Source: a virus. From it: DNA of 64,000 nt. The notes under the pieces were generated by a model. It was not told the DNA's origin. It saw only the letters and a program-made list of their open reading frames with translations, and searched no databases. Both the position numbers and the translations under genes were made by a program. Numbering within the stretch: position 1 is the first letter of the stretch; every line of letters begins with the position of its first letter. The stretch is from the IMG/VR virus record IMGVR_UViG_3300044825_002608, positions 35,658 through 99,657 of that record. The stretch is one strand, 5' to 3'. Shown piece by piece: positions 25,353-63,383 of the stretch.

Positions 25353-25353
25353 G

Positions 25354-28077: not shown

Positions 28078-28089
28078 GGAGGAACTCAA

Positions 28090-29889: not shown

Positions 29890-29922
29890 TAAATAACTTT
29901 AAGAAAAAAGTATACAAAATAG

Positions 29923-40692: not shown

Positions 40693-40736
40693 AAGTCACC
40701 TAGATATGATATAATGAGTTTGTATGACTTTATCTT

Positions 40737-46998: not shown

Positions 46999-47604
46999 AT
47001 GACTACAACAACGCAAAAGAAACCCGCAAGTAATTCTAAGAAAGTTGCGGATAAGAAAACTGATAATGCCATTACAGAATTACCTGCAAATCCATTTATT
47101 TTTGAAATTCTTCAACTTACATCTAAGCAACGATCTAATGCAAAGAAAGTAGAAGTTCTTCAAAAATATAATCATCCATCTTTAAAGTCTATTTTTATTT
47201 GGAATTTTGATGAAAGTATAATTTCTATGCTTCCTCCTGGAGAAGTTCCATACGCTAGTGTAGGCGAACAAAATTCTTTTGGTGGAACCATTAGTGGTAA
47301 AATTGAGGATGCTGTAACTAAAATGCAAGAAATTGGATCAAATTCCTTAGGATCTCAAGATCAAGGATTTTCTTCCATTCGTAAAGAATATACTAAGTTT
47401 TATAATTTTGTGAAAGGTGGTAATGATGGACTAAGTTCTCTTCGTAGAGAGACAATGTTCATTAATATTCTTCAGGGACTTCACCCACTTGAGGCTGAAA
47501 TTTTATGTCTTGTGAAAGATAAGCAACTTGAAACAAAGTATAAAATTACAAAAGAAATCGTATCTGAAGCTTATCCTGATATTCAGTGGGGAGGTCGTTC
47601 TTGA
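46999..47604 (+). CDS. conserved T4-like cyanophage hypothetical protein
   Basis: LPPGEVPY, RRETMFINILQGLHPLEAE motifs. Confidence 0.75.
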   Translation: MTTTTQKKPASNSKKVADKKTDNAITELPANPFIFEILQLTSKQRSNAKKVEVLQKYNHPSLKSIFIWNFDESIISMLPPGEVPYASVGEQNSFGGTISGKIEDAVTKMQEIGSNSLGSQDQGFSSIRKEYTKFYNFVKGGNDGLSSLRRETMFINILQGLHPLEAEILCLVKDKQLETKYKITKEIVSEAYPDIQWGGRS

Positions 47605-47954
47605 GTAAACTTCATGATGTAATTAAAAAAGTACAAAATACCGAAGATAAGATGGAATCTTGGACACCTGCAGAAAAAGAAACTTGTAAATCAAAATATG
47701 GATGTGATATTTTGATTCAAAATGGTTCCTATGCTGAAGTGTGTACTAAAGATGCACCAAGTGACGCATATATTGTTAAATATTTTCTTGATGATAAAAT
47801 TTGTTTTGATTTGACACGAGGTTCACGAGTTCGTTTATTTGATATGTATTGGGACAAGTTTCGTGATAATTTGAAGAGTATTAGTTTTGGATATGGTAGA
47901 ATAGGTCCAAAACTTTGGGGATATAAGGCACCTGAAAAGAAAAAGAGAAAGTGA
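47601..47954 (+). CDS. hypothetical protein
   Basis: Co-oriented ORF; start codon uncertain. Confidence 0.65.
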   Translation: MSKLHDVIKKVQNTEDKMESWTPAEKETCKSKYGCDILIQNGSYAEVCTKDAPSDAYIVKYFLDDKICFDLTRGSRVRLFDMYWDKFRDNLKSISFGYGRIGPKLWGYKAPEKKKRK

Positions 47955-48107
47955 TTTCCCAGGGAGTCTAAAAAATTTCCCCAAAAATTTCTCACGCGAT
48001 AGTTTTTATATATAGTAATGCTCTAATAAGGTCGCACTTTTAGAGAAGGGTGGAGAAATCCACCCTATTTTATTATAAATACTATTGCGACCTTAATTTA
48101 GAAGCGG

Positions 48108-48710
48108 ATGAGAAAGTTTTATGTCTACGCATATTTGCGTGAGGATAAATATACACCCTATTATATTGGGAAGGGATGTGGTAAAAGATGCTATCATAAA
48201 AGGGGAAAAAATTGCAATCCTCCAAAAGATAGAAGTAGGGTAATTATTGTAAAAGATGATTTGTTAGAAGAAGATGCGTTTAGTCTTGAAAAGATATTAA
48301 TAAATTTTTGGGGAAGAAAATGTGATGGTGGAATTCTTTTAAATATTTCTCCCGGAGGAAGTGCTCCTCCAATTGGTAATGGTAGCAATCTTTTTTTATA
48401 TAGTAAAGAAAGAAAAATAAAAGGAAGTAAAATTCATCCAGCAAAAAAAGTTATTATTGGCGGGGTTGAATATATTTCTTTAAAACAAGCATCTGAAATT
48501 TTAAATATTAATCATTCAACTTTATCTAAAAGAGTTAGAATGGGAAAAGATTTGGATGTTCCAATTAAAAAAGTAAGTAAAATTTTAGTTTTAATTAACG
48601 ATGAAGAATATTCCGTTAAAGATGCTGCTCAAATTTTAAATATTTCTTCTCATACTTTGAGGGCAAAAATATCAAGAAATCATCCATCGATTAAATATAA
48701 AAAAATTTAA
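48108..48710 (+). CDS. free-standing GIY-YIG-like homing endonuclease with C-terminal HTH repeats
   Basis: FYVYAYLRED..PYYIGKG..R, E...N motifs; two SLKQA/SVKDAA HTH units. Confidence 0.8.
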   Translation: MRKFYVYAYLREDKYTPYYIGKGCGKRCYHKRGKNCNPPKDRSRVIIVKDDLLEEDAFSLEKILINFWGRKCDGGILLNISPGGSAPPIGNGSNLFLYSKERKIKGSKIHPAKKVIIGGVEYISLKQASEILNINHSTLSKRVRMGKDLDVPIKKVSKILVLINDEEYSVKDAAQILNISSHTLRAKISRNHPSIKYKKI

Positions 48711-48742
48711 TAATATACATTTTAGTGTAAATTAATACACTA

Positions 48743-48772
48743 TTGACTAAATATTATTAGGTGTGTTATATT
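48743..48772 (+). promoter_or_regulatory. sigma70-type promoter upstream of the riboswitch-like leader
   Basis: TTGACT-18 nt-TATATT. Confidence 0.55.
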
Positions 48773-48778
48773 ACCACC

Positions 48779-48883
48779 ATCGTTCATCCTCATTAAACAG
48801 GACGCAAGTAGGACGACGCGGAACGCAATATCGTTCATTCGCTATTTCAGAATAGCGAACGGAAACGCCGCCCAAAGGAACGG
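48779..48883 (+). ncRNA. tandem glutamine riboswitch-like elements (glnA / Downstream-peptide class)
   Basis: Two units, each ATCGTTCA...GGAACG (closing stem CGTTC/GAACG) with an internal hairpin, upstream of a YRGV DUF4278-like ORF. Confidence 0.75.
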
Positions 48884-48917
48884 GAATTAAAAATCTCATT
48901 TCTTTAGGAGAATTTCA

Positions 48918-49052
48918 ATGAATAAAACCGTTTATAGAGGTGTCCCCTACGACACCGAAGTTCGTCGCCAGCAACAACAGCAGGCACAGCAACAACCTCA
49001 ACAATACAACGAAACCTATCGCGGTGTTAAGTTTGTAAAGGAGGCAAAGTGA
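48918..49052 (+). CDS. DUF4278-like peptide with a poly-Gln tract (44 aa)
   Basis: AGGAG RBS; MNKTVYRGVPYDTEVRRQQQQQAQQQPQQYNETYRGVKFVKEAK, with two YRGV motifs. Confidence 0.8.
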   Translation: MNKTVYRGVPYDTEVRRQQQQQAQQQPQQYNETYRGVKFVKEAK

Positions 49053-49147
49053 TGAAAAAACTTAATGTTCTTCAACTGATCAAAGATCAAAAACAAAAAG
49101 AAGATCGTCGTCATAAAGCACTCCTTGTAAATGCAGGAGCAAAATAA
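49052..49147 (+). CDS. small basic peptide (31 aa)
   Basis: GGAGG RBS, TGATG coupling; MKKLNVLQLIKDQKQKEDRRHKALLVNAGAK. Confidence 0.6.
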   Translation: MKKLNVLQLIKDQKQKEDRRHKALLVNAGAK

Positions 49148-49230
49148 TGCTAGTTATGGCACAAATAGCAGTATCATCTGCAGCTTTAATTGCACTTTTG
49201 TCATTGTACATACAGTTTATTTACAAGTAA
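49147..49230 (+). CDS. small hydrophobic peptide (27 aa)
   Basis: AGGAG RBS, TAATG coupling; single TM-like segment. Confidence 0.5.
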   Translation: MLVMAQIAVSSAALIALLSLYIQFIYK

Positions 49231-49241
49231 ATTAAACTTTG

Positions 49242-49279
49242 AGGGGGGGATTGACTTCCCCCCTTTTTTTATGTAAAAT
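49242..49279 (+). terminator. terminator overlapping a sigma70 promoter
   Basis: G-rich/C-rich stem plus T tract; TTGACT in the loop, then 17 nt, then TAAAAT. Confidence 0.75.
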
Positions 49280-49302
49280 ACTGGAAACCCTCACATGTAT
49301 GG

Positions 49303-49461
49303 ATGGATAGAGAAAAAGTAAAACTAATTGTTCGCAATCTTGAATTGCTTGTAGATTCTCTAAAGGCAGAAATCTATTCTGATGTTAAATCATGCAAATA
49401 TGATGACATCAAACCAAAATACCTTGATTACGACGAAATTTTTGAAGAGGATAATGACTAA
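49303..49461 (+). CDS. hypothetical protein (52 aa)
   Basis: MDREKVKLIVRNLELLVDSLKAEIYSD...DYDEIFEEDND. Confidence 0.65.
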   Translation: MDREKVKLIVRNLELLVDSLKAEIYSDVKSCKYDDIKPKYLDYDEIFEEDND

Positions 49462-49621
49462 TAGAGCAAAGGAACTTGTAAAACTGCTTGAGAGACTTAC
49501 TAAACAAGATCATCTTTATAGTGGAGAACAACTCAAGGAAATGAAATCACAATTGCGAGTAGTTAAGCAAGAACTCGCAGAACTGGAAGCAAAAACAACA
49601 AAAGGATTTGGAAAGAAATGA
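49454..49621 (+). CDS. hypothetical coiled-coil protein
   Basis: MTNRAKELVKLLERL...KGFGKK; overlaps the thyX start. Confidence 0.65.
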   Translation: MTNRAKELVKLLERLTKQDHLYSGEQLKEMKSQLRVVKQELAELEAKTTKGFGKK

Positions 49622-50370
49622 AACCAATTAAATCAAAGGATCTTCTTGAACTTGACAAGCATCTTGAAGTAGTAAAACTTCAAGGTTATCCAATCCCAGA
49701 GCAAGTTATTTGGCAAGCGGGAAAGGGGGATTATTCTGAAGTTCCCATTCACCATGTAAAAGTTCCTTCTAATCAGGAATGTGGTGAATGGATTGTTGAG
49801 CAACTACTTGCAAATGAGCGTGGTCATTGGGGTCCTATTGAACACCCTGCCATTACTTTTTCAGTAGCGGGTTTTGTTCATAATGTAATTGTTCAGGCAC
49901 GAACTCATCGTATTGGTACTTCTTGGGATGTTCAATCCCAGCGTTATACTGGTAAGCGTGTAGTAAAGGTTTCTAAAGGTGAACTTCCTATTGAAGAAGT
50001 CTTCTACGTGCGTCCTGTAGGGTTCTATACCAATCGTAAGGGTAAGAAGTATGAATGGACTGAAGAACACCGTCAACGCAAACTAGAGCGTATTCTAAAT
50101 GAGTGTGAGGAGTATGCTGAGTATTATGAACAGGGAATGTGTGAAGAACATATCCGTGACTACCTACCACAAGCAATTCGTCAGAACTTTGTAGTAACTT
50201 TTAATCTACGCTCTGTTCTTCACTTCATGGACCTTCGTTCAAAACTTGATGCTCAAATTGAGATTCAAGCATTGTGTGATGCTTTCATTCCCGAACTTCA
50301 GAAGTGGGCACCAAACGTTTGGAAATATTATGAAGAAAAAAGGTTGAAGAAAGCAAAACTGTCTCCATAA
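49618..50370 (+). CDS. thyX: FAD-dependent thymidylate synthase
   Basis: GHWGPIEH, RTHR...SQRY ThyX motif, NLRSVLHF, AQIEI. Confidence 0.95.
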   Translation: MKPIKSKDLLELDKHLEVVKLQGYPIPEQVIWQAGKGDYSEVPIHHVKVPSNQECGEWIVEQLLANERGHWGPIEHPAITFSVAGFVHNVIVQARTHRIGTSWDVQSQRYTGKRVVKVSKGELPIEEVFYVRPVGFYTNRKGKKYEWTEEHRQRKLERILNECEEYAEYYEQGMCEEHIRDYLPQAIRQNFVVTFNLRSVLHFMDLRSKLDAQIEIQALCDAFIPELQKWAPNVWKYYEEKRLKKAKLSP

Positions 50371-50469
50371 ATAATTCCGCCTGAAGTTGACTGCAATCTC
50401 TACGGGTAGGAGAGTAGAAATACTCTCCTTTAAATTATAAATATTAATGCAGTCAACTAAAGAGCAGTT

Positions 50470-51216
50470 ATGGTAAATCCTAACAGATTTTATACTTACG
50501 CTTATTTAAGAGAGGATAGAACTCCTTATTACATAGGTAAAGGTAATGGAGATAGAGTTTATAGAAAAAGACAAAAGGGAGTTAACCCACCAAAAGACAA
50601 ATTCAGAATAATCTTATTAAAACAAAATATTTCAGAAGAAGAAGCATTCAAGCACGAAATCTATATGATTGCTGTTTTTGGTAGAAAAGATTTAGGAACT
50701 GGTATTCTTCATAATAGAACTGATGGGGGTGAGGGAATGTGTGGATATAAACATTCCGAAGAAACTAGAAAAAAAATTGGAGAAATTGGTAAAGGTAGAA
50801 AATGTAAAGATGAAACTAGAAAAAAATTAAGTAAAGCAAGTAAAAATAGAGTTTGTAGTGAGGAAACTAGAAAAAAATTAAGTGCATCGAAGACTGGCAA
50901 AAATAATCCTATGTATGGAAAAACTCCATCCAAAGAAACTAAAATAAAAGCAAGTAAAGCGAATAAAGGAAATAGTGCTTGTGGTTGGAATAAAGGTAAA
51001 AAAATGAAACCCTTTAGTGAAGATCATAAAAGAAAAATAAGTGAATATGCTAAAAATAAAAGTGAGGAACATAGAAAAAAATTGAGCGAATCTTCAAAAG
51101 GTAGAATATCTCCTAATAAAGGTAAAAAAATGAGTGAAGAACATAAAAGAAAAATAGGTGAAGCAAATAAAAAGAGATGGGAAGAAAAAACAACCTATTT
51201 AAATCTTAATAAATAA
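50470..51216 (+). CDS. free-standing GIY-YIG-like homing endonuclease with NUMOD3 repeats
   Basis: FYTYAYLREDRTPYYIGKG...LHNRTDGGEG; repeated SEETRKK/SEEHKRKI. Confidence 0.85.
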   Translation: MVNPNRFYTYAYLREDRTPYYIGKGNGDRVYRKRQKGVNPPKDKFRIILLKQNISEEEAFKHEIYMIAVFGRKDLGTGILHNRTDGGEGMCGYKHSEETRKKIGEIGKGRKCKDETRKKLSKASKNRVCSEETRKKLSASKTGKNNPMYGKTPSKETKIKASKANKGNSACGWNKGKKMKPFSEDHKRKISEYAKNKSEEHRKKLSESSKGRISPNKGKKMSEEHKRKIGEANKKRWEEKTTYLNLNK

Positions 51217-51238
51217 ATTATCTTGAATTCGTAACTTT

Positions 51239-51478
51239 ATGCCTACATATCGCTTTGAAAATACGGAAACTGGAGAAATATTTGAGAAATGGATGCTTAT
51301 GGCAGAAAAAGAACCATATCTCAAAGAAAATCCTCATCTTAAACCACTTATACCAACACAAATGAATGTTGGTGAAGTGGGCGATTGGAAAAATAAATTA
51401 ATTAATAAGCACCCAGATTGGAATACTGTTCTGGATCGTGCAAGTAAAGCACCAAAATCAACCGTAAAGAAAATTTAA
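51239..51478 (+). CDS. conserved T4-like hypothetical protein (FmdB-like MPTY start)
   Basis: MPTYRFEN...YLKENPH; lies directly before phoH. Confidence 0.7.
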   Translation: MPTYRFENTETGEIFEKWMLMAEKEPYLKENPHLKPLIPTQMNVGEVGDWKNKLINKHPDWNTVLDRASKAPKSTVKKI

Positions 51479-52233
51479 TGGCAAGAAAAAACAGAAGAGC
51501 AGATCAACCAATTGGGGTTGGTCTTACTACTCGTCAAATGAAGCGTAGAAAACCATTAAGTAGTGAGTATCTGATAGATATCGATCCTCTTACAGAAAAT
51601 CAAAGAAAACTTTTTAATTCGTATTCTGAAGGTAAGCATCTTGTTGCTTATGGGTGTGCTGGAACTGGTAAAACATTCATCACGCTCTACAATGCACTAA
51701 GAGACGTTCTTGATGAAAGAAGTCCTTATGAAAAGGTTTATATTGTAAGATCTTTAGTTGCTACTAGAGAGATTGGTTTTCTTCCAGGTTCTCATGATGA
51801 CAAGGCAGACATTTACCAAATTCCTTATAAGAATATGGTAAAGTATATGTTCCAAATGCCTAGTGATGCTGACTTTGAAATGCTCTATGGAAATCTGAAA
51901 TCTCAAGAAACAGTTAAGTTTTGGAGTACTTCATTCCTTAGAGGAACAACTCTTGATAACGCAATCGTAATTGTTGATGAGTTCCAAAACGCAAATTTTC
52001 ACGAATTATGTTCTATCATTACTCGTGTTGGTGAAAACTGTAAAATTATGTTTTGTGGAGACGCAACTCAAAGTGATCTTATAAAGACAAATGAAAGAAA
52101 TGGTGTTATTGACTTTATGAAAATTCTTAGATCTATGCCTTCTTTTGATATTATTGAATTTGGTATAGATGATATTGTTAGATCTGGGTTAGTTCGTGAA
52201 TTTATTATCGCCAAAGAAACTTTGGGTCTTTAA
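51478..52233 (+). CDS. phoH: PhoH-family ATPase
   Basis: GCAGTGKT, REIGFLPG, FLRGTTL, DEFQN, GDATQSD, IVRSGLV. Confidence 0.96.
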   Translation: MARKNRRADQPIGVGLTTRQMKRRKPLSSEYLIDIDPLTENQRKLFNSYSEGKHLVAYGCAGTGKTFITLYNALRDVLDERSPYEKVYIVRSLVATREIGFLPGSHDDKADIYQIPYKNMVKYMFQMPSDADFEMLYGNLKSQETVKFWSTSFLRGTTLDNAIVIVDEFQNANFHELCSIITRVGENCKIMFCGDATQSDLIKTNERNGVIDFMKILRSMPSFDIIEFGIDDIVRSGLVREFIIAKETLGL

Positions 52234-52311
52234 TAATGGTATTGATGAAAAACTTATAACAATTGACGAATCCATACCTATGGGATATAATAAAGGAAGA
52301 GTGAGGTCTTA

Positions 52312-52995
52312 ATGTTCAATCATATTGATATTGAATTACCCAAACTTGAAAGAACTACAATTGATGGGGTAAGATATTATGAAGTTCCTGATAATGGGGA
52401 ACTACTAAAATTAGTTTCAATTACTTCTGTAACTAGTCACAAAAATCGCCAGTTTTTTGCAAACTGGCGTAAAAAAGTTGGGGAAGAAAAAGCAAATAAA
52501 ATAACCAAACAAGCAACTAGTCGCGGTACTGATATGCATAGTTTGGTTGAAAATTATCTTTATAACATTCCAAAACTTCCAGAAGTCCAGCCTTTGTCAG
52601 AATTCTTATTTAAAATCGCTAGACCAGAATTAAATAAGATAAATAATATTTACGCTCTCGAAGGTTCTCTATACAGTAAAGTTCTTGGAATAGCAGGAAC
52701 AGTAGATTGTATTGGAGAGTTTGATGGAGAATTGGCAATAATTGACTTTAAAACATCAAAAAAACCAAAGCCCAAAGAATGGATTGAACATTATTTTGTT
52801 CAATGTATGGCATACGGGGCAATGTTTTACGAATTAACTGGAATTCCAATTAAAAAACTTGTAGTTATTATGGCTTGCGAAAATGGAGAATGCGTCGTTT
52901 ATGAAGAAAAAGACAAATCAAAATACATCAAACTCCTCACTGAATACATTAGAGAGTTTGTTAGAGATAGACTGGAACTCTATGGAACAAAATAA
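52312..52995 (+). CDS. PD-(D/E)XK exonuclease (T4-like cyanophage exonuclease A)
   Basis: SITSV, RGTDMH, AGTVDC...IIDFKTS, QCMAY. Confidence 0.88.
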   Translation: MFNHIDIELPKLERTTIDGVRYYEVPDNGELLKLVSITSVTSHKNRQFFANWRKKVGEEKANKITKQATSRGTDMHSLVENYLYNIPKLPEVQPLSEFLFKIARPELNKINNIYALEGSLYSKVLGIAGTVDCIGEFDGELAIIDFKTSKKPKPKEWIEHYFVQCMAYGAMFYELTGIPIKKLVVIMACENGECVVYEEKDKSKYIKLLTEYIREFVRDRLELYGTK

Positions 52996-53242
52996 AGAAC
53001 TAGAACAAGTAATTCAGGATAAGTTTCTTACTCCATCAAGATTTGCGATGGAAATTGAAAAGATTGTAATTGAAGAAAATCTCAATTATATTGATAGCAT
53101 CGTGCATTATTGTGAAATCAATGGTCTTGAAATTGAATCCGTAACGAAACTCATTTCAAAACCATTGAAGGAAAGACTCAAAAATGATGCAATTAATTTG
53201 AACTTTATGAAGAAAACTTCCCGTGCTCGTTTGCCTATCTAA
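52982..53242 (+). CDS. gp33: late transcription coactivator gp33
   Basis: FAMEIE...NYIDSIVHYCE...ISKPLKERL; synteny with gp59-gp32. Confidence 0.85.
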   Translation: MEQNKELEQVIQDKFLTPSRFAMEIEKIVIEENLNYIDSIVHYCEINGLEIESVTKLISKPLKERLKNDAINLNFMKKTSRARLPI

Positions 53243-53838
53243 TGGTGACGCCTTATCAAGTTTATACGGAGTATCTCGCCTTAAAATCGCACTTTACTAA
53301 TAAAAACTACGATTATTTCAAATATAATAAAAAAGTTCGTGCTTCAATAACATCATTTAACCGCCGGACCGATAAATATTGGTTCGAAAAGACAAGTCGC
53401 AAATATAAGGATGAAGAAATTGTTGATTTCTTTGTCTCCAACTTCGTTCAATCAGAAAGTAACTCTAACATATGGATTGGTTCTTTAATAAACGAAGGAG
53501 AAAAAGTCTATTCGGAGTGGAAAAAACGCCAACAGAGTTTGAGTTACTTGTTCAAAGAACAGTCAACGGAATTATTCTCAGAAACAGAATTAGAGAATGT
53601 ATTCAAGTGTTGCAAAGGTCATCCACCAGTTCTCAAAAAGTTTCTAAGCGGGAAACTATCCTTAGAAACCTTCATAATTTACGAAAGAATCTTCCAATTT
53701 GCAAAAGATTTTGATAAGAAACTGATTGACCCAGTGTGGGAAACCGTAAGTATGAAGATCAAGAAGTATTCTCCATTTTTACTACATATTAATATACTCC
53801 AATACAAAAAAATTTTACGGGATATTATAAATGAGTAG
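53242..53838 (+). CDS. gp59: helicase loader gp59
   Basis: YLALKSHF...YDYFKY...RTDKYWF; lies upstream of gp32. Confidence 0.88.
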   Translation: MVTPYQVYTEYLALKSHFTNKNYDYFKYNKKVRASITSFNRRTDKYWFEKTSRKYKDEEIVDFFVSNFVQSESNSNIWIGSLINEGEKVYSEWKKRQQSLSYLFKEQSTELFSETELENVFKCCKGHPPVLKKFLSGKLSLETFIIYERIFQFAKDFDKKLIDPVWETVSMKIKKYSPFLLHINILQYKKILRDIINE

Positions 53839-54160
53839 ATTTTTTGACTCAGAATTGATTCAACAAGAACTTAAAGAAATTAATGAACTTCAAGAATTTC
53901 TTTATGGGAGTATCTTATCTTTCGGTATAATGTCCCGTGAAGATAAATTGGAGCATATTGAAAAAATGACTCAACTGCTTGAAAAACAGCAGATTATGTA
54001 TACTCGTCTTTCTCTTTCTGATGATCCACAAGCGATTGAAATGAAAGAGAACCTTAGGAAATCAATTGCCATTATGGGATTTCCGCCAGAAACTGATATT
54101 GGAATGTTATTTTCAAGTATGAGTAAAACTATTGAGTCTCTCAGAAAGTATCTTGACTGA
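53831..54160 (+). CDS. conserved cyanobacterial/cyanophage helical protein (DUF1825-like)
   Basis: FFDSELIQQE...KQQIMYTRLSLSDDP. Confidence 0.75.
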   Translation: MSRFFDSELIQQELKEINELQEFLYGSILSFGIMSREDKLEHIEKMTQLLEKQQIMYTRLSLSDDPQAIEMKENLRKSIAIMGFPPETDIGMLFSSMSKTIESLRKYLD

Positions 54161-54181
54161 TTGAGTCATCCTTGCTATAAT
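54153..54181 (+). promoter_or_regulatory. sigma70-type promoter of gp32
   Basis: TTGACT-17 nt-TATAAT with an extended TG. Confidence 0.8.
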
Positions 54182-54225
54182 ATCTAAGTCAATCCCCCGA
54201 ATCCAAAACTATCCGAGGTAATCTA

Positions 54226-56304
54226 ATGGGCTTTGCCGATCTTAAAAAACAATCAAAACTTGGTTCCTTGACTGCTAAACTAGTCAAGGAAGTAGAAAAA
54301 ATGAATACTACTGGAGGATCTTCTGATGATCGTCTCTGGAAACTAGAATGCGATAAAAGTGGCAATGGATATGCTGTAATTCGCTTCCTACCCGCACCTG
54401 AGGGAGAAGATCTACCTTTTGTAAAGGTATACTCTCATGCTTTCCAAGGTCCTGGTGGTTGGTATATTGAGAACAGTCTTACCACTCTGGGACAAAAAGA
54501 CCCTGTATCTGAGCACAATACTCTACTCTGGAACAATGGCACTGATGCAGGTAAAGAACAAGCACGTAAGCAGAAGCGTAAACTAACTTATGTTAGTAAT
54601 ATTTACGTTGTAAAAGATCCTGTCAATCCAGAGAACGAAGGTAAAGTATTCCTTTAATTTTTAAAGAGGCATATAGTAGTAATACTATATGAAAACCAAG
54701 TGAATTGCTGGAAACTCTTGTTAGGTAAACTGACTAAAACAGATTCACTGTGAAAGAAAACTGTTCTTTTATAAATAGTTTTATATAAAAGAACACATAT
54801 GAATAAATTGTACTGTGATTTAGATGGAAAATACTATTCTAAAGTGGGAATAGTTCGAATAATAAAAAAATTCGGATTAGAACCAAAAAATTATTATGAT
54901 GAACACTTTAAACTAAATTCTGAAGGCATATGTCCTAACTGTGGAAATTTTACAAAATTTACAAAATTTTCTTATCGTAAGTTTTGCAATTCTAAGTGTT
55001 CTTCTCAGTATAATAAAAATGCTGAGAAAATGTGGAAAAATTCTTCTGAGGAGGATAAGAAATCCATAGTAAGTAAAATGTTGAATACTCGGTTTTCAAA
55101 TAATTCAAAAGAAGATATTGAAAAGAAAAGAGTAGCAACTTTACTTAAAAATACAGGATTTTCCTCTTACTCTGAATTTATTTCGCATCATAAAAAAGAA
55201 TGGTACAAAAGTTTAACTGAAGAAGAATATAATCAATTCTTCGACAATATAACTAAGTCTAGAAATCAATACAAATATCATATGTATACACTGAATGGTA
55301 TACAGGTTCGCACTCAGGGATATGAAAAATATGTCCTTGATGTTCTAACCAAGTATTTTGACAATACAAAAATTAAAGTAGATAGTAAAATATCAATAAG
55401 ATATAAAGATACTAACGGAAAAACAAAACGTTATTATCCAGATATCATAATAGATAATTTACTTTTTGAAGTTAAATCTTCATATACTTTAAAAATACAT
55501 AAAAATAATGTATTGTTAAAAATGGAAGCATCTAAAAATGCAGGATACATACCATTTCTAGTTGTATGGGAACCTAAAGAATCTGAAATGTGTAAAAACA
55601 GTTTAATAGAGACAATCAGCAGCCAAGACCTATCACAGAAGGTAAGGTTCAACGACTATCCGTTTATCGGAGTAGGTTATAAGCAAATGATAACCGAAGT
55701 GCTTGGAATCCATTCAAATGGATTATGATATAGTCTGTTCTATATTGAGAAATATAGCTGAATAAGATCGGGATTGGACTTGCGAACCAATCTGAACATA
55801 AAGTTTAAATACGGTAAAAAAATCTTTGACAAACTTACTGCCGCAATGCAACCCGAGTTTGAGGATGAAGAAGCAATTGATCCCTTTGACTTCTGGAAGG
55901 GTGCTAACTTCAAACTGAAAGCGAAGAATGTTGCTGGTTATCGTAACTATGATTCTAGTGAGTTTGCTTCTGCTGGTGCTCTTCTTGATGATGACGATGA
56001 ACTTGAAGCAATCTGGAAGCGTCAATATTCTCTTGCTGAATTTGTTTCTCCCGATCAGTTCAAATCTTATGAAGAACTGAAAAAGCGTCTTGATTATGTT
56101 CTTGGTAACAAAGGTACTCCACGTTATCAAGATCCTGAAGTTGAAGATGAAGAGGACTATCGTGGTCCTGCTCCAAGTCTGGACGAAGACCTTCGCACTG
56201 AACTCAACAATCTTCAACCCACTCGTCGTGTTGCGGTTGATGAAGATGATGAGGACGCTGATGATACGTTGCAATATTTTGCTCGCCTTGCCTCAGACGA
56301 CTGA
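54226..56304 (+). CDS. gp32: single-stranded DNA-binding protein gp32, two exons: join(54226..54654,55804..56304), 309 aa
   Basis: DDRLW, GNGYAVIRFLP, and NEGKVFL|FKYGKKIFDK restored by splicing; acidic C-terminal tail. Confidence 0.93.
54655..55803 (+). mobile_element. group I intron in gp32 with an endonuclease ORF
   Basis: Exon ends CUU, P1 CCUU/GAGG, terminal G; cores GAATTGCTGGAAAC, AATCAGCAGCCAAG, GTTCAACGACTA, GATATAGTCT. Confidence 0.9.
54799..55728 (+). CDS. intron-encoded putative PD-(D/E)XK homing endonuclease with an N-terminal Cys cluster
   Basis: CPNCG...FCNSKCS; RYYPDIIIDNLLFEVKS. Late promoter TATAAATA at 54770-54777. Confidence 0.8.
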   Translation: MNKLYCDLDGKYYSKVGIVRIIKKFGLEPKNYYDEHFKLNSEGICPNCGNFTKFTKFSYRKFCNSKCSSQYNKNAEKMWKNSSEEDKKSIVSKMLNTRFSNNSKEDIEKKRVATLLKNTGFSSYSEFISHHKKEWYKSLTEEEYNQFFDNITKSRNQYKYHMYTLNGIQVRTQGYEKYVLDVLTKYFDNTKIKVDSKISIRYKDTNGKTKRYYPDIIIDNLLFEVKSSYTLKIHKNNVLLKMEASKNAGYIPFLVVWEPKESEMCKNSLIETISSQDLSQKVRFNDYPFIGVGYKQMITEVLGIHSNGL

Positions 56305-56321
56305 TTCTGTGCTATAATACT

Positions 56322-56348
56322 GGGGAGGCAATGGTCTCCCCCTTTTTT
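56322..56348 (+). terminator. gp32 terminator
   Basis: GGGGAGGC-AATG-GTCTCCCC followed by a T tract. Confidence 0.75.
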
Positions 56349-56939
56349 ATGAAATCTGATTATCATATTGACCGAATCACAAAGAAGCAGGCAGAAGAAC
56401 TTCTTTTAACCCATCATTATCTTAAAGATTTTTCTAAGGGATACAAATCTGGATATAACTATGGTTTGTTTAAAAAGAATGATTTTTCACCTTTGAATAT
56501 TGGTGGTCCTGTGGGGGTCGTAATTTTTACTGGATTGTCAGTCCCAGAAATCGCAAAAGGAGCATTTGGACTTGAAAGAAATCAACAATAAGGACTTTTT
56601 GAACTTTCACGACTTTGTATACACCCTGGAACTCAGCAAGAAGAATACAATATTACTTCCTGGTTTGTATCCCGTTGTATCAAACAACTACGCAAAGAAA
56701 CAATCGTTAGGGCTATTATTTCTTATGCTGATTCAGATTTTCACAATGGTACTATTTACCGTGCTTGTAACTTTAAATATTGTGGACTTACTGACCCCAA
56801 AAAAGATTTTTACTATTCTGATGGAACCAAACATTCAAGAGGTAAAGTAAAAGGTGCCGAGGGAGAATGGAAAGAACGCTCCCGCAAGCACCGTTATGTT
56901 ATGATGTTTGATAAAACTTTAAATCTTTTATGGATTTAG
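56349..56939 (+). pseudogene. Mom-like (GNAT-fold) DNA modification gene interrupted by an in-frame TAA at 56589-56591
   Basis: HHYL...GVVIF | stop | FELSRLC...ISYADSDFHNGTIYRACNF continues in the same frame to a TAG. Confidence 0.75.
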
Positions 56940-56952
56940 TGAATTTATATTT

Positions 56953-57576
56953 TTAATTTTTTATCAATTTATCGTTTATATATTGAGATGACTCACTATA
57001 AGTCATCTCTTTTTTTATGTCAGTTAAAACTTGTTGTAAGTATATTGGTTTTAGAACATAGATGACTCTTTTTTTATTATTTTTATCAACCTCATATTCA
57101 TAATTGGTAATTCCAACCACAGGGTTTAGTGTTTGCAATTTATCTAAAGGGTTAGGAATGGTAAAGTTAGAATCAACAACTTGACCCTTAGGGAGTATTA
57201 GTCTATCTTGAGAATCTTTTACCTCAATAGTTTCATAATGGTGAATTGAATTCAATTCATTACCATAGATATTTTCTGCGTAAAGATAAAGTTGTTGATC
57301 TGATAATGGCCATTGATCTCTGATTTTTGTGATTCCAGCAGTGACTAAGACAACCCAGTCATATTGGGAACTGCCATATAATTCTTCTGCGACCGTATCT
57401 GGTCTAGCACCATCTACTATTTCATACTTATTAAAAATAGTAAAAACATTTTTCAAATCATCACGAAGTTTAACTCTACGAAATAAATTTTTTACAAGTA
57501 AATATTCGTTAGAAGATTTTTTGCTTGATAAAAATGACTCATACTCTAAATTTGGTAACTCTCTGAAATAAGACAT
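56953..57576 (-). CDS. gp53: baseplate wedge subunit gp53
   Basis: YFRELPN, GARPDTVAEELYG, WVVL, QWPL, IHHYET. Confidence 0.88.
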   Translation of the reverse strand: MSYFRELPNLEYESFLSSKKSSNEYLLVKNLFRRVKLRDDLKNVFTIFNKYEIVDGARPDTVAEELYGSSQYDWVVLVTAGITKIRDQWPLSDQQLYLYAENIYGNELNSIHHYETIEVKDSQDRLILPKGQVVDSNFTIPNPLDKLQTLNPVVGITNYEYEVDKNNKKRVIYVLKPIYLQQVLTDIKKEMTYSESSQYINDKLIKN

Positions 57577-58481
57577 TAGTAACCTACTCCTTCTCTACCT
57601 TCTGTAGTATTATCATATTCTTCAGCATAAATTGGGGACAGTTCTTGGAATTGTAATGTCATCTGCATATGAACTGGTGTTGCATCTGGATAACTTGCAT
57701 ATTGAGCAGATCCATTATAATTAACACTCATCTGGGTTAAAGCACAAGGTTTAAATCGATGTAAAAATGGGTGTTGTTTTCCACCACTCATGTATTGTAA
57801 TTTAAAAATATTAGGTGCTTTAACGAAAAGTCCGTTACCATTTTTTTCTGGAGTTCCTTTTTTTGGAGTCATATTTTGCTTGAAAGTTCTGATTATTTTT
57901 TTAATCATATCACTTTCTGATTTTGATCTAGGAACCATATCAAAAGTAAATTGGAATGCAGGTCTCATGGTTACACCATTAAATAATAATTCAACATTTT
58001 GATTGAAAACTTGTCCAGTATTTCTAGAAATAATTTGATTTATGTCTCCTTGACCCAATGCTGCCTGTAATCCTGCGGCAGCTGCTCCTGCTGCCAGACC
58101 TTGTTGACCCTCTCCAGTTGCTACTGCAGATCCAACTTTTTCAAAAAACTTATTTCCAGATTGAAGTATAGATGCTACAATATTCGAACTTAAAACTGCA
58201 TCCGCTCCAGCAGATGTTAAACTAGCCGATATTGGATTCATATTTCCAGAAACCCAATCTGCAGCATTATTATCTTGAATATTCGCTGGCATTGGAAGTA
58301 TAATAGTTTCTATAACAGTTTTTACACTTGCCAATGCCTGCTCTGTTGTCCCTAATGCAAATCCTTCACCAATCAAATCAAGTCCGGGTGCTTTATATTC
58401 TAATATTTGGATTTTAAAATAATCATCTTGACTTCCAATATGTTTAATTGGATATCTCAAAGAAGATTGTTGGAGGGCCAT
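57576..58481 (-). CDS. gp48: baseplate tail-tube cap gp48
   Basis: LPMP...NQNVELLFNG...FQFTFDMVPRS...CALTQMSVNY. Confidence 0.85.
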   Translation of the reverse strand: MALQQSSLRYPIKHIGSQDDYFKIQILEYKAPGLDLIGEGFALGTTEQALASVKTVIETIILPMPANIQDNNAADWVSGNMNPISASLTSAGADAVLSSNIVASILQSGNKFFEKVGSAVATGEGQQGLAAGAAAAGLQAALGQGDINQIISRNTGQVFNQNVELLFNGVTMRPAFQFTFDMVPRSKSESDMIKKIIRTFKQNMTPKKGTPEKNGNGLFVKAPNIFKLQYMSGGKQHPFLHRFKPCALTQMSVNYNGSAQYASYPDATPVHMQMTLQFQELSPIYAEEYDNTTEGREGVGY

Positions 58482-58503
58482 TTATTTTTTTAACTATTTA
58501 TTG

Positions 58504-59100
58504 TTAGTTTTGTACTAATTTTCCGTATGGAATTCTTAGTAGAATTGAAAATTCATCTCTGCTTAATTCATACAATCCGCTAACTAATCGATCTCCATCT
58601 TGAGTATTATATTGTCTGTATTTTCCAAGATGAAAATTATAACCTTTAAATCCTCTTGGTAATAAACTATCAACAATAATTAATGGGTATCTATCATAAC
58701 GAATTCTTGGAGTTTTAGCATAATAAACATAAGTATAATATCTTCCAGGAACAGGAGGAAGAGGTACTTCACTTCCACTAAGTCTGGACAATATTTCATT
58801 CATGAGTTCATCGGGGTTTTCTACTCCTAGTAAAGATTCTTTTAATTCTGTAAGACTTTTTGATTTACTTTTGCTATAAGTAGGACCTTTAACTCTTCTA
58901 GGAAGTTTTGGATTTGCTTCAATATACTCAATATCAACTTTAATGATATTGATAAGTTGTTGCTTAGTTAATTTTTCATATCCTCCAAGTTTTCCTTTTC
59001 CACTTGCTGTCTGATAATAAGGATTATATTCCTTAGCAATTTCTGCTAATTCTTTTTGAGTATATTGATCTAATGGTTTTTCGTATCCTGTGAGTGCCAT
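58504..59100 (-). CDS. gp2: DNA end protector gp2-like protein
   Basis: PGRYYTYVYYAKT...YDRYPLI...GYNFH; synteny with gp4. Confidence 0.65.
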   Translation of the reverse strand: MALTGYEKPLDQYTQKELAEIAKEYNPYYQTASGKGKLGGYEKLTKQQLINIIKVDIEYIEANPKLPRRVKGPTYSKSKSKSLTELKESLLGVENPDELMNEILSRLSGSEVPLPPVPGRYYTYVYYAKTPRIRYDRYPLIIVDSLLPRGFKGYNFHLGKYRQYNTQDGDRLVSGLYELSRDEFSILLRIPYGKLVQN

Positions 59101-59729
59101 TACTTGATATCTTTGATAAATTTTCCACCTTTCTTAAGAATATAATATCTAGAAAGTCCCGTCTGGTTTATTGCTTCGGTCATAGACTTATATATTTTAT
59201 TATTGTATTCTATCGATTTAGCAGCATAAGATTGGTTTTTCATAAATTCACTATGTCTTTTATGCTTTTCTTTATCAGTTCTATTTCTTTCTGCCATTTT
59301 TTTTAAATTTTTACTATAGTAAGATTTTGGTCTTGGATTATTTTTTAATTTTTCTTTCCAAGTATTTGATTGCTTTTGTCTTACTTCTTCCGGAATTTTT
59401 TTTCCTTTTAAACTTATTTTATTTGCTTCTCCTATTTTTTTCTTTGTTTCTTCATTTAAAATTCTTCCAGAAACACCGTCACCACCATTGGTTTTATTGT
59501 GAAGAATACCTGTTTTTAAATCTTTTCTTCCAAATATAAAAATCATATAAATTTCGTGTTTGAATGCTTCTTCCTCTGTTAGATTTTGTTTTAAAAAGAT
59601 TATTCTTGATATATTTTTTGGTTGGTTTATATTTCTTTGTTTGGATTTAATTCTATCTTCTTTACCTTTACCAATATAATATGGAGTACCGTCTTCTCTT
59701 AGATAGGCATATGTATAATATATTTTTAT
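59100..59729 (-). CDS. GIY-YIG-like homing endonuclease lacking a canonical start (ATA at 59729-59727); possibly a pseudogene
   Basis: Frame extends 61 codons upstream of the ORF-track ATG and encodes IYYTYAYLREDGTPYYIGKG; late promoter at 59753-59760. Confidence 0.75.
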   Translation of the reverse strand: MKIYYTYAYLREDGTPYYIGKGKEDRIKSKQRNINQPKNISRIIFLKQNLTEEEAFKHEIYMIFIFGRKDLKTGILHNKTNGGDGVSGRILNEETKKKIGEANKISLKGKKIPEEVRQKQSNTWKEKLKNNPRPKSYYSKNLKKMAERNRTDKEKHKRHSEFMKNQSYAAKSIEYNNKIYKSMTEAINQTGLSRYYILKKGGKFIKDIK

Positions 59730-59761
59730 CTGGTTTTATTTTCAATTTTTATTATTTATAA

Positions 59762-60205
59762 CTAAAAAAGTTCATTCTCAGTAATGACTTTAAACTCATA
59801 TCCACGATCAGCACACCATTCTTTTGCTGCTCCCCATTTTGCTTGATTTTTGGCGTACTCATAGACTTCACTAATATATCTTTTTGTTTGTCTCTTGGGT
59901 TTGGATGGTGGAACAGTTTGTTTTGACGGTTTAATTTCAATCATATATTTTTTGATAGTACCATTAGATTCTCTGACTTTAATTAGAAAATCGGGGTAGT
60001 ACCGGTGGGGTTTCCCGTCCACTGGAGATTTATACCACACAAACATTTCTTCACTGGAATATTCTAAAATATTTTCGTTCATATCACAATAATAAAGAAA
60101 TTTTCTTTCCCAACTTGATCTATAATATATTTCGCAAATATTTCCTTTGTATTTTTCAGGATTTGCTGGTTTATATTTTCCCTGTAAAAATTTTTTTCTA
60201 CTCAT
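59762..60205 (-). CDS. gp4: head completion nuclease gp4
   Basis: GKYKPANPEKYKG, YRSSWE, RYYPDF, IEIKP, NQAKW. Confidence 0.92.
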   Translation of the reverse strand: MSRKKFLQGKYKPANPEKYKGNICEIYYRSSWERKFLYYCDMNENILEYSSEEMFVWYKSPVDGKPHRYYPDFLIKVRESNGTIKKYMIEIKPSKQTVPPSKPKRQTKRYISEVYEYAKNQAKWGAAKEWCADRGYEFKVITENELF

Positions 60206-60776
60206 ATTTTTTCCACCCTTTATGACTTTTATTTCTTCCAGCAACTACTTGTTGTAAGCAACCAATGCTTAAATTATTGTCTTTTGCAAATTTAGTAAGA
60301 TTTTTAATTTCCACTACTTTTCCAGTTGGATCTATTAACTTATATTCTTTACTATTTTTTTCAGATATTTTCTTTTTTATTTCATCTGAAATTTTTTTCC
60401 CTTTATTAGGACTTGTGTTATTTTCATAATATTTTTTTATATTTACACTCATTTTTTCTCTGGTTTCTTTATTGTGGGTTTTTCCATACATTGGATTTAG
60501 TTTTCCAAATCTAGCACTGCCATACATACCATTTTTTTCACCACAATTTATCCTAGAGTTTCTGAAATTTTCATCTGTTTCATGTAAAAATTTTGTCCGT
60601 TCACCTATCATTTTTCTAACTTCTTCTGTATGTGTTTTTCCATAGAACCCATTTTTATAACCACTACATCCACCATCATTATCACTTGTGAAAAACTCTT
60701 CAATAATTTGCTCACTTCCTAGATTGAAAATTTCATTAAGTTTTTTTGTGCTAAATTTATAATAAATTCTTTTCAT
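60198..60776 (-). CDS. NUMOD3/HTH DNA-binding protein (homing-endonuclease derived, no recognisable nuclease domain)
   Basis: NGFYGKTHTEE, NPMYGKTH, PNKGKK repeats; C-terminal NLTKFAKDNNL...HKGW. Confidence 0.7.
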   Translation of the reverse strand: MKRIYYKFSTKKLNEIFNLGSEQIIEEFFTSDNDGGCSGYKNGFYGKTHTEEVRKMIGERTKFLHETDENFRNSRINCGEKNGMYGSARFGKLNPMYGKTHNKETREKMSVNIKKYYENNTSPNKGKKISDEIKKKISEKNSKEYKLIDPTGKVVEIKNLTKFAKDNNLSIGCLQQVVAGRNKSHKGWKKYE

Positions 60777-60872
60777 ATTGAAGATATTTTTATTCCATAT
60801 TATTTATAATTAATATTTCCCCTTATAAGACATCTAAATAACTATACTAAACGCTCATAATAGGTATTTAGA

Positions 60873-61682
60873 GTGGCAACACCACGTAGAATATCGGATA
60901 TTAGACCACTATTTACTAATCTTGCACAAACTTCTCATTATGAAGTAAAGTTTGGAGGTTTACCAAATCAATTAAAATCATACTTAGGTCGAAGAGGAAT
61001 TACCGAAAGATTTATTACTGAAGATGCTGGGTTGCTATGCAATAATGCAGTTTTACCGACAACACAACTAGCAACTGCAGAAATATCAGGTAACTATATT
61101 GGTATTACTGAAACATTTGCACATCGTAGAGTATATCAAGATATAAGTCTTGAGTTCTATGTGGATAAAAATTATAAAACATTAAAGTTTTTAGAACATT
61201 GGATGGAATTCATTGCAAGTGGATCTACAAATCCAATTGATGGTATTAATCAACCAATTAATGGGAACGTTGATGTGGGATACTTTGCAAGAATGCAATA
61301 TCCTGAATACTATAAATCTAATCAAACTAGAATTATAAAATTCGATCGTGACTACCAACAAGAAATAGAATATACTTTTATAGGATTATATCCATACAGC
61401 ATTGCTTCTATCCCAGTTTCCTATACACAATCTGATGTGATGAAAATGCAAGCAACATTTAAAATAGATCGTTATGTAATTGGAAAATCTTATAGTATTG
61501 ATTACTACAGAGAAACTGCAAATAACATTCAACCTGCACAACCCAATCTACCTGTACAAAGTTCTGAAAAAGTTCAAAAACCATTATTAGTTCCAAGATC
61601 ACCTGGATCTATACCATCAAATGGAGTTGAATTTTTACCTAATAATAAATCATTATATGAGTCACTTTATGGTAATAAATAA
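60873..61682 (+). CDS. tail tube initiator / tail-tube-fold protein (gp54/gp19-like)
   Basis: LLCNNAVLP...ISLEFYVD...FLEHWMEFI...LYPYSI; precedes gp26. Confidence 0.7.
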   Translation: MATPRRISDIRPLFTNLAQTSHYEVKFGGLPNQLKSYLGRRGITERFITEDAGLLCNNAVLPTTQLATAEISGNYIGITETFAHRRVYQDISLEFYVDKNYKTLKFLEHWMEFIASGSTNPIDGINQPINGNVDVGYFARMQYPEYYKSNQTRIIKFDRDYQQEIEYTFIGLYPYSIASIPVSYTQSDVMKMQATFKIDRYVIGKSYSIDYYRETANNIQPAQPNLPVQSSEKVQKPLLVPRSPGSIPSNGVEFLPNNKSLYESLYGNK

Positions 61683-61705
61683 TCCTAACTGACTTATAGG
61701 TTGAT

Positions 61706-62425
61706 ATGCCATTACCAAAAATTGAAACTCCATCATATAGTTTAGAAATTCCATCTCTTAAAAAAGAAATTAAATATAGACCCTTTCTTGTTAAAGAAGA
61801 AAAGATTCTAATCATTGCACTGGAAAGTGAAGACTCTAAACAAATTGCTGATGCTGTTAAAAATGTTATTAGCAATTGCATCTTGACAAAAGGAGTAAAA
61901 GTAGATCAACTTGCTATTTTTGACATTGAGTATTTGTTTTTAAATATTCGTGGGAAATCTGTTGGAGAAACTGTTGACGTTTTAATTACCTGTCCAGATG
62001 ATCAAAATACTCAAGTTCCAGTTAGCATTAATCTTGATGATATAAAAATTAATATCAGTAAAGAACATTCTAGAGATATTAAAATAGATGATAATTTAAC
62101 TCTAAGAATGAAATATCCTTCAATGAAGGAATTTATTAAGACTAACTTTGAAAATAATTTTGATATAAGTGTTGATGATACTTTTGATTTGATTCTATCA
62201 TGTATCGAACAAATTTATAGTGAAGAAGAATCTTGGTCAGCATCAGATTGTACGAAAAAAGAACTTTCCGATTTCATTGAGCAATTAAGTCCAAAAAAAT
62301 TCAAAGAAGTTGAAAAATTCTTTGCAACGATGCCTAAACTTTCTCATAAAATCAAGATTAGAAATCCAAACACAGATGTTGAGAGTGAAGTTCTACTGGA
62401 GGGACTAACAAGTTTTTTCGCCTAG
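61706..62425 (+). CDS. gp26: baseplate hub assembly protein gp26
   Basis: MPLPKI.TP.Y, YRPFLVKEEKILI, FDIEYLFLNIRGKSVGE, LEGLTSFF. Confidence 0.9.
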   Translation: MPLPKIETPSYSLEIPSLKKEIKYRPFLVKEEKILIIALESEDSKQIADAVKNVISNCILTKGVKVDQLAIFDIEYLFLNIRGKSVGETVDVLITCPDDQNTQVPVSINLDDIKINISKEHSRDIKIDDNLTLRMKYPSMKEFIKTNFENNFDISVDDTFDLILSCIEQIYSEEESWSASDCTKKELSDFIEQLSPKKFKEVEKFFATMPKLSHKIKIRNPNTDVESEVLLEGLTSFFA

Positions 62426-62427
62426 CG

Positions 62428-62598
62428 ATGGCTCATGAAAATCTTGAGTCATACTATAAAACTAATTTTTCTCTCATTCAACATCATCACTGGTCTTTAA
62501 CTGAAATAGAAAATCTTGTACCATGGGAAAGAGAAGTTTATATTGCTCTTCTCAAACAATATATTGAGCAAGAAAATTTAAAAAATCAACAACAATAA
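62428..62598 (+). CDS. gp51: baseplate hub assembly catalyst gp51-like (56 aa; absent from the ORF track)
   Basis: YYKTNFSLIQHHHWSLTEIENLVPWEREVYIALL. Confidence 0.85.
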   Translation: MAHENLESYYKTNFSLIQHHHWSLTEIENLVPWEREVYIALLKQYIEQENLKNQQQ

Positions 62599-62602
62599 AA
62601 TA

Positions 62603-63229: not shown

Positions 63230-63383
63230 AACTGCTCTTTAGTTGACTGCATTAATATTTATATTGCAAAGGAGAGTATTTCTACCCTCCAAACCTGTAG
63301 AGATTGCAGTCAACTTCAGGCAATGTTATTTATATTGCAATAAATAAAGTATATTGAAGAAGAAAACTTAAAGAACAACGCAA

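Follow-up and report, generated by a model that had tools for sequence, protein, structure and literature searches.

Homing endonucleases need to be held at a low dose if the genome that carries them is to be spared, and the hairpin in cis combined with a late promoter described in phage T4 has been the model of such restraint for decades. Hairpins that sequester the ribosome-binding site (RBS) and enclose a nested late promoter are known from I-TevI, I-TevII, I-TevIII, segB and Aeh1 mobE, and also from the T4 genes e, soc, 39, 25 and 26 (PMC2988022). In the Global Ocean Sampling marine metagenome, the main text of Dassa et al. (2009) describes hairpins in the 5' untranslated regions of free-standing GIY-YIG and Vsr-like endonuclease genes, present ahead of the start codon at 15 of the 16 loci, containing TATAAATA in 10 and involving two complementary motifs, and reads them as simple mobE-like translational hairpins (PMC2677866). 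The element considered here precedes free-standing homing endonuclease genes (HEGs) in a 64,000-nucleotide (nt) stretch of viral DNA, IMG/VR record IMGVR_UViG_3300044825_002608, positions 35,658 to 99,657 (hereafter the window, from whose first letter coordinates are counted). The window represents part of the genome of an uncultured T4-like cyanophage from fresh water, its sequencing runs being lake metagenomes and its closest records the Synechococcus phages S-SRM01, B3/B23 and ACG-2014f. The reading favored here, with moderate confidence, is that the element is a portable RNA control leader of about 105 nt for the free-standing HEGs of T4-like cyanophages, equipped with its own short mask RNA.

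The loci of Dassa et al. resemble the present ones in lying on phage-like aquatic contigs and in preceding several nuclease types, and they differ from them, as far as their main text goes and by description rather than motif by motif, in that the present loci have an upstream second late box, an inner terminator and a 5' hairpin (PMC2677866). The initial annotation of this DNA had set the element apart from the RBS-sequestering hairpin of T4 I-TevI; in fact, an RBS-masking helix whose arms enclose a late promoter is that very mechanism, here elaborated (PMC2988022). The masking logic is not new, since it is established for I-TevI and mobE and was read likewise by Dassa et al.; what goes beyond these descriptions is the conserved upstream promoter box, the covarying 5' hairpin and the terminator. 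As in the T-even and Aeh1 masks, a helix would hide the ribosome site on long transcripts, TATAAATA lies inside it, late transcripts would lack the 5' arm, and the gene restrained encodes a homing nuclease. Unlike in those masks, a putative intrinsic terminator stands between the 5' arm and the leader, a covarying hairpin of its own carries the arm, and the arm begins precisely where transcription from a second, conserved late promoter is predicted to start, so that the mask is a predicted stand-alone transcription unit of 49-68 nt. No such features have been described for T-even phages.

Short terminated antisense RNAs include IS10 RNA-OUT and the RNAs of type I toxin-antitoxin systems, for example Sok. 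P22 sar is another (listed in PMC12197685). With these the predicted RNA would share a length of roughly 50-70 nt, a recognition stem-loop followed by a terminator, a position beside its target, and complementarity to the 5' leader and ribosome site. They are transcribed from the opposite strand, across their targets, whereas the present element is a same-strand inverted repeat upstream of the target's promoter; the opposite-strand, overlapping regulator that defines cis-antisense and type I toxin-antitoxin pairs is accordingly not found here. CfrI of cyanophage S-PM2, an antisense RNA of about 225 nt linking psbA and the endonuclease gene F-CphI (PMC2984593), resembles the predicted RNA in being non-coding, in coming from a T4-like cyanophage and in its association with a HEG. 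Unlike the module, however, CfrI is a true antisense RNA, longer, confined to one locus and experimentally detected, and the two share no layout.

A conserved and covarying leader module

The first copy of the module, copy A, lies directly upstream of the gene for the free-standing homing endonuclease A, and direct reading of the sequence places every motif where the initial annotation had put it. Reading along the plus strand, a late-promoter-like box, P1 (CATAAATA, 50366-50373), is followed by a hairpin region that the initial annotation had characterized only by the 11-mer AGTTGACTGCA (50385-50395; RNA arm AGUUGACUGCA). The region can now be described as a 5' hairpin, H1 (50379-50407), closed by the stem GCCUG/CGGGU, with this anti-leader 11-mer in its apical part. 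A terminator-like hairpin of 9 bp with a GAAA tetraloop (50408-50429) comes next, followed by TTTAAATT; with its tail, UUUAAAUU, the terminator element spans 50408-50435. The second late-promoter box, P2 (TATAAATA, 50436-50443), lies between both pairing partners, and beyond it the leader of the nuclease mRNA (50448-50469) holds arm 2 (TGCAGTCAACT, 50448-50458; RNA UGCAGUCAACU), the exact reverse complement of the 11-mer, and a Shine-Dalgarno (SD)-like region, AAAGAGCA. The latter also pairs with GCCU of the 5' segment, so the pairing is longer than the 11-mer and runs into GCCU / AG.GC beside the start codon.

About 590 relatives of the nuclease domain were found in IMG/VR, and 80 loci were fetched, yielding together with the three copies in the window 79 unique HEG-upstream regions, 76 of them from relatives. 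Two late-type boxes stand 62-81 nt apart in 59 of these 79 regions, and a covariance model of the layout gave 67 cassette matches. The module begins with box P1 (NATAAATA or CTAAATA), 5 nt, a purine and H1, which carries an arm of about 10 nt at its apex. Its middle consists of a GC-rich hairpin, mostly with a GAAA or UUCG tetraloop, a U-rich tail and box P2, TATAAATA in almost every case. After another 5 nt and a purine come the complementary arm and AGAG(C/U)A, and the ATG follows 3-8 nt later. TATAAATA stands between the arms in all three copies of the window and in the 63 unique cassettes. Upstream of P1 the sequence is unrelated between loci, which makes P1 the module's 5' edge.

Covariation across homologues, which the initial annotation had named beforehand as one test of its proposal, is found throughout these cassettes. 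In the covariance-model alignment, 90.6% of the cells of the outer helix and terminator are paired, compared with 66% when partners are shuffled and 35-52% when they are slid, and 24 of 25 pairs show compensatory changes; the covariation score of 0.63, against 0.21, was reached in none of 500 shuffles. The terminator helix by itself is 94% paired, with all 7 pairs compensatory. H1 has compensatory changes in 6 of 7 pairs (for example CCUG/CAGG, CCUUAA/UUAAGG, GCUU/AAGC and GUCUG/CGGAC), its cognate stem has an energy of -6.5 compared with -3.7 kcal/mol for non-cognate combinations, and in 62 of 63 cassettes its first base is nt 1 or 2 of the predicted RNA. On a MAFFT alignment, in which indels had shifted the arms against each other, RNAalifold recovered only four pairs, all in the terminator; the pairing was therefore assessed on covariance-model alignments and by comparing cognate with non-cognate partners outside any alignment. 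Without any alignment, duplexes between the 5' segment and the leader reach -22.2 +/- 1.5 kcal/mol for cognate and -10.3 +/- 3.7 kcal/mol for non-cognate combinations, and for each 5' segment the cognate leader ranks 1-4 of 56, which demonstrates that the pairing is thermodynamically feasible and specific. Chance and recent duplication are ruled out by covariation over about 60 diverged loci. On this comparative evidence the layout is a conserved, covarying module at the RNA level, with the RNA mask under selection.

The strand of the structure can be read from the same data. With 40 G.U wobbles among the pairs, the duplex is more stable as sense-strand RNA than as its opposite-strand counterpart in 62 of 63 cassettes, which identifies the selected structure as an RNA of the gene's own strand. 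A functional RNA from the opposite strand, a true antisense RNA with a terminator like sar or RNA-OUT, is hardly credible on these grounds, since its G.U pairs would become A.C and both conserved boxes read NATAAATA on the gene's strand only, even though GAAA hairpins flanked by runs of A and U can terminate in both directions.

The layout had been annotated three times in the window, and the covariance model returns exactly three sites, in the window as in the whole 99.6-kb contig: 50366-50475 (+), 63224-63334 (-) and 48007-48113 (+), each directly upstream of a HEG. The exact 11-mer occurs only at the positions of copies A and B. Copy B (63224-63334, minus strand) comprises P1 (63334-63327), H1 (63321-63293) with arm 1 (63315-63305), the terminator hairpin (63290-63271), P2 (63263-63256), arm 2 (63251-63241) and the ATG (63229-63227). 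Copy C (48007-48107, plus strand) repeats the architecture of A and B with different arm and stem sequences: its first box, TATATATA, lies at 48007-48014, H1 at 48021-48045 with the arm UAAGGUCGCA at 48027-48036, the terminator hairpin at 48049-48066 followed by a U-rich tail, P2 at 48074-48081, arm 2 at 48086-48095 and the ATG at 48108. The RNA folds of the three copies have z-scores of -4.5 to -5.6, with none of 200 shuffles folding as well, and folding the whole leader gives the nested outer helix as the structure of minimum energy, a helix that reaches the SD-like region next to the AUG.

Copies A and B offer a close comparison within one genome. They share 76% identity in the coding regions, with differences at 13 of 33 third codon positions (39%), while the 25-nt anti-leader block and the 34-nt block from P2 to the leader contain zero changes; all 13 differences between the cassettes sit in spacers or keep the pairing. 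The arms are identical although the C-terminal DNA-binding parts of the two nucleases are unrelated, with 50% nucleotide identity.

Comparison with Rfam, which had also been suggested in the initial annotation, gave no match of the cassettes to any family (Rfam 15, positions 47000-64000, E-value limit 1). The only overlapping row was a chance-level SurA hit on the opposite strand of copy C, at 17 bits against a gathering threshold of 100.

Promoter boxes, a putative terminator and the predicted short RNA

Both boxes match the late-promoter motif of cyanomyoviruses, NATAAATA (PMC2984593), which fits their initial description as late promoters. Five of the eight positions of P1 are invariant across 56-60 cassettes in which mean column identity is 55%, and P1 is as conserved as P2. 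In the window, 13 of the 26 late-type boxes lie 0-60 nt upstream of an open reading frame (ORF), while 3.3% would be expected by position. At T4 late promoters the box is followed by 5 nt and then by +1, the sixth base after the box. By this rule, the P1 transcript is predicted to begin at the first paired base of the mask and the P2 transcript at the first base of arm 2; in copy A, the predicted start of the short RNA is G50379 and that of the mRNA is G50449. The first base of the duplex is nt 0 of the predicted P2 transcript in all 63 cassettes and nt 0 of the predicted P1 transcript in 61 of them, a result partly imposed by cutting the segments at the predicted starts. When flanking bases are allowed, complementarity extends only 1 nt past each predicted start.

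The hairpin between the arms looks like an intrinsic terminator of the T4 type. It has the GC-rich stem, short loop and U tract by which intrinsic (rho-independent) terminators are recognized, with termination itself being a prediction: the core dG is -12.9 +/- 2.2, tetraloops are present in 52 of 63 cassettes (GAAA in 32, UUCG in 10), mostly 4-7 U are found in the next 8 nt, and the terminator ends 1-8 nt before P2. A terminator scan called the hairpin of copy C and missed that of copy A, copy B being outside the scanned region.

Taken together, P1, the predicted starts and the terminator predict a separate RNA of 49-68 nt (median 56), and such an RNA likely exists. The initial annotation had foreseen a late RNA of about 55 nt complementary to the 5' end of the nuclease mRNA; the size and the complementarity from the predicted starts are upheld as predictions. 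In nearly all cassettes the predicted RNA folds as the 5' hairpin plus terminator, and in silico the core of its arm is 71% unpaired in the free RNA, which would form a dimer with the P2 mRNA at -13.1 kcal/mol net of unfolding, compared with -2.7 for non-cognate pairs.

The helix that the arms form measures 16-19 bp in silico and by comparison, and it ends 3-8 nt before the AUG. Long transcripts leave positions -18 to +3 unpaired with a mean probability of 0.30 and P2 transcripts with one of 0.63, the latter being higher in 62 of 63 cassettes; for copy A the values are 0.29 and 0.60.

Proposed mechanism and competing explanations

In the proposed mechanism, the anti-leader of 16-19 nt would pair with the first ~19 nt of the late nuclease mRNA, from nucleotide 1 through the SD-like AGAG(C/U)A that immediately precedes the AUG, and would block the access of ribosomes. 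Because P2 lies between the pairing partners, P2 transcripts would lack the mask in cis, following the logic of I-TevI and mobE. The mask would possess its own late promoter, P1, exactly at its 5' end, its own hairpin displaying the arm, and a terminator ending just before P2, from which it should also arise as the separate short RNA. The same segment would mask the leader in cis on read-through transcripts, and on balance the short RNA probably titrates P2 mRNA in trans as well. The net effect would be a nuclease dose that is kept low.

Aquatic T4-like phages would thus have made the T4 hairpin an independent unit of transcription, one exchanged among unrelated nuclease genes. A more specific form of the idea, advanced tentatively, gives each HEG a dedicated small RNA gene on its own strand: a late promoter would yield a hairpin-plus-terminator RNA of about 55 nt, the arm shown in its loop would pair along its full length with the initial ~19 nt of the nuclease mRNA from the following late promoter, and the ratio of the two co-fired promoters would set the dose in trans; the modules would then constitute a portable class of sense-encoded, inverted-repeat anti-leader small RNAs with orthogonal arm pairs. 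Should the short RNA be real and act in trans, it would be a new kind of phage regulatory RNA, encoded in sense and paired 5' end to 5' end with its target, and the modules would form a ready-made library of orthogonal RNA-leader pairs.

The strongest competitor, itself rather doubtful, is a mask of the T4 type that works only in cis: the upstream arm would act on read-through transcripts alone and silence them until P2 fires, the terminator would insulate, and box 1 would be inactive or its products functionless. Such masks are experimentally established for I-TevI, I-TevII/III, segB and Aeh1 mobE (PMC2988022) and were proposed for marine HEG leaders in the main text of Dassa et al. (PMC2677866). 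The nested outer helix being the minimum-energy fold of the whole leader agrees with it, as does the position of many cassettes directly 3' of a co-directional gene. It leaves unexplained, however, why box 1 is invariant and keeps a fixed 5-nt distance to the first paired base despite the 55% column identity, why the 5' hairpin covaries, and why a perfect mask is kept beside a divergent gene in copy B and in several relatives. The upstream neighbor of copy B (63386 onward, plus strand) is divergent, so P1 is the only visible source of its mask.

Several observations weigh against the favored reading of a leader with its own mask RNA. The cis-only precedent accounts for the outer helix and P2 without any small RNA, and promoter activity, termination and the short RNA are all predicted. 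The U tract, stronger in copy C and most relatives, is weak in copies A and B, where only 3 U may make termination leaky. The first box of copy C, TATATATA, is not a consensus late box. Six loci have a second cassette type in which a loop pairs with the leader in the absence of a conserved upstream box, as a cis-only mask would allow. A search with a model of box 1, hairpin and terminator (R3) found no free-standing short-RNA modules in five complete genomes (about 1.2 Mb) or in the contig itself, only known full cassettes, so nothing shows that the RNA works away from its gene; the same result suits a cis-only mask. Finally, at the junction downstream of the ThyX gene in S-SRM01 (MW015081, L001:2270-2305), the same junction that copy A occupies, a homologous nuclease gene has a 24-nt leader and a single late box, CATAAATA, over the ThyX stop, with the module missing, while six other sites in that genome have it.

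Two side observations concern these variants. The second cassette type (loci L022, L034, L048, L054, L065 and L074) lies about 110 nt upstream of the nuclease ATG and consists of a compound terminator-like hairpin, GGGC..GCAAC..loop..GUUGC..GUCCC, with a U tail; its anti-leader occupies the apex of the terminator hairpin, is complementary over 10-17 bp to the late leader up to the AUG, and comes in four covarying sequence variants. In one fetched relative, an orphan but intact unit of box 1, 5' hairpin and terminator (L040:3009-3086, minus strand) has neither second box, complementary arm nor nuclease gene, and stands about 110 nt upstream of a conserved 239-aa structural gene with its own GATAAATA box. 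Either the orphan was left behind when a nuclease gene was lost, or it is a small RNA that stands on its own.

Other explanations fare less well. A positive role for the short RNA, in which a blunt duplex at the 5' end of the P2 mRNA would protect it from 5'-end-dependent decay by RNase E, would fit the inclusion of mRNA nucleotide +1 in the duplex; it is unlikely, since the duplex also extends over the SD-like region, stopping about 3-8 nt short of the AUG, and would block binding of the 30S subunit, and known HEG regulation all points to down-regulation (PMC2988022).

Still less probable is an element that acts as DNA. The inverted repeat around P2 would then be an operator through which the nuclease represses itself, a cruciform, or what an insertion at late promoters left behind, whether a recombination joint or a stop-codon donor. 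I-TevI does bind an operator overlapping its own late promoter (PMC2988022), and in at least 14 of 28 co-directional contexts box 1 provides the stop codon of the gene before it; in 4 further contexts the box directly adjoins that codon. Yet the G.U wobbles and the energy asymmetry between sense and antisense duplexes in 62 of 63 cassettes indicate pairing of RNA, and copies A and B share their arms while their C-terminal DNA-binding parts are unrelated. As a late box ends only 10 of 61 nuclease genes, there are no flanking promoter repeats, and a module flanked by such repeats, or a promoter-repeat insertion scar, is ruled out.

Nucleases, spread and neighboring features

The gene downstream of copy A encodes homing endonuclease A, a free-standing enzyme of 248 aa (50470-51216, plus strand; ATG at 50470) with an N-terminal GIY-YIG-like domain and four NUMOD3 motifs. 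Homing endonuclease B (62603-63229, minus strand; 208 aa) has the same N-terminal domain, 72% identical to that of A, and a different C-terminal part. Homing endonuclease C (48108-48710, plus strand; 200 aa) is 53% identical to A in this domain and has a C-terminal part of the NUMOD1/helix-turn-helix (HTH) type. The three nucleases thus have in common an N-terminal domain of about 100 aa, to which C-terminal parts with NUMOD3, NUMOD1 or HTH are joined.

This domain has no match to Pfam PF01541, and a profile search of the PDB gave a non-significant E of 0.6. For an AlphaFold2 model (predicted local distance difference test, pLDDT, 78), the only matches at Z 5 or above were GIY-YIG domains (Z 5.9-7.5 over 69-81 residues, root-mean-square deviation 2.5-4.1), the next unrelated chain having a Z of 2.4; the top nine Foldseek matches are UvrC GIY-YIG domains (E 0.07). 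The GIY-YIG fold is recognized by a beta-beta-alpha-beta-alpha core with the Tyr of GIY, the Tyr-x-Gly of YIG, Arg, Glu and Asn, and in 38 sequences Y8/Y10, Y20-Y21-I22-G23, R29, E63 and N82 are invariant or nearly so. The structure matches and the near-invariant residues make the label GIY-YIG-like reasonable, and the domain likely belongs to the GIY-YIG superfamily.

The initial annotation had the element travel with this GIY-YIG-like family, an association that proves too narrow. About 20% of the family's members lack the module, and nuclease genes headed by it include PF01541 GIY-YIG, HNH_3/NUMOD4, NUMOD3/HNH-like and at least two further nuclease-like families. To judge from this distribution, the module behaves as a portable regulatory part that serves several HEG families. 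Complete IMG/VR genomes of 220-260 kb contain 1-5 copies each, and among cultured phages S-SRM01 has 6, B3 has 3-4, and S-B68 and S-N03 have 1 each. The module of about 105 nt is a reliable marker of free-standing HEGs and of insertion boundaries in cyanophage genomes and metagenomes, and it accounts for many intergenic gaps of 100 nt that seemed empty.

Copies A and C follow co-directional genes, while copy B and several relatives face a divergent gene; these orientations derive from ORFs and are used only qualitatively, as spurious antisense frames in AT-rich DNA make them noisy. In co-directional contexts, the stop codons that lie inside box 1 (offsets -4 and -8) or abut it suggest that the module is typically joined exactly at the end of the preceding gene. 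Copy A is an example: the ThyX gene (PF02511; 49618-50370, plus strand) lies directly upstream, and P1 overlaps its TAA stop.

At the other end, the stop codon of nuclease A lies inside a late-type box, AATAAATA (51208-51215, plus strand), and the next ATG follows 23 nt on, at 51239; the nuclease gene thus appears to supply the late promoter of the downstream gene, an arrangement shared by the 10 of 61 relatives counted above.

Further features of the window lie outside the module. Two tandem glutamine-riboswitch-like aptamers (48779-48886, plus strand), scoring 32.4 and 30.4 bits against an Rfam gathering threshold of 35, stand directly 5' of a Gln-rich ORF of 44 aa (48918-49052); nuclease C lies on one side of this segment and the ThyX operon on the other. 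The group I intron family RF00028 is matched at 55505-55757 (plus strand) with 47.3 bits against a gathering threshold of 50 and an E-value of 1.7e-9. The direct-repeat search is dominated by a very large array of repeats of about 120 nt (40 aa) at 25350-40700 (plus strand), present in dozens of copies with 60-88% identity.

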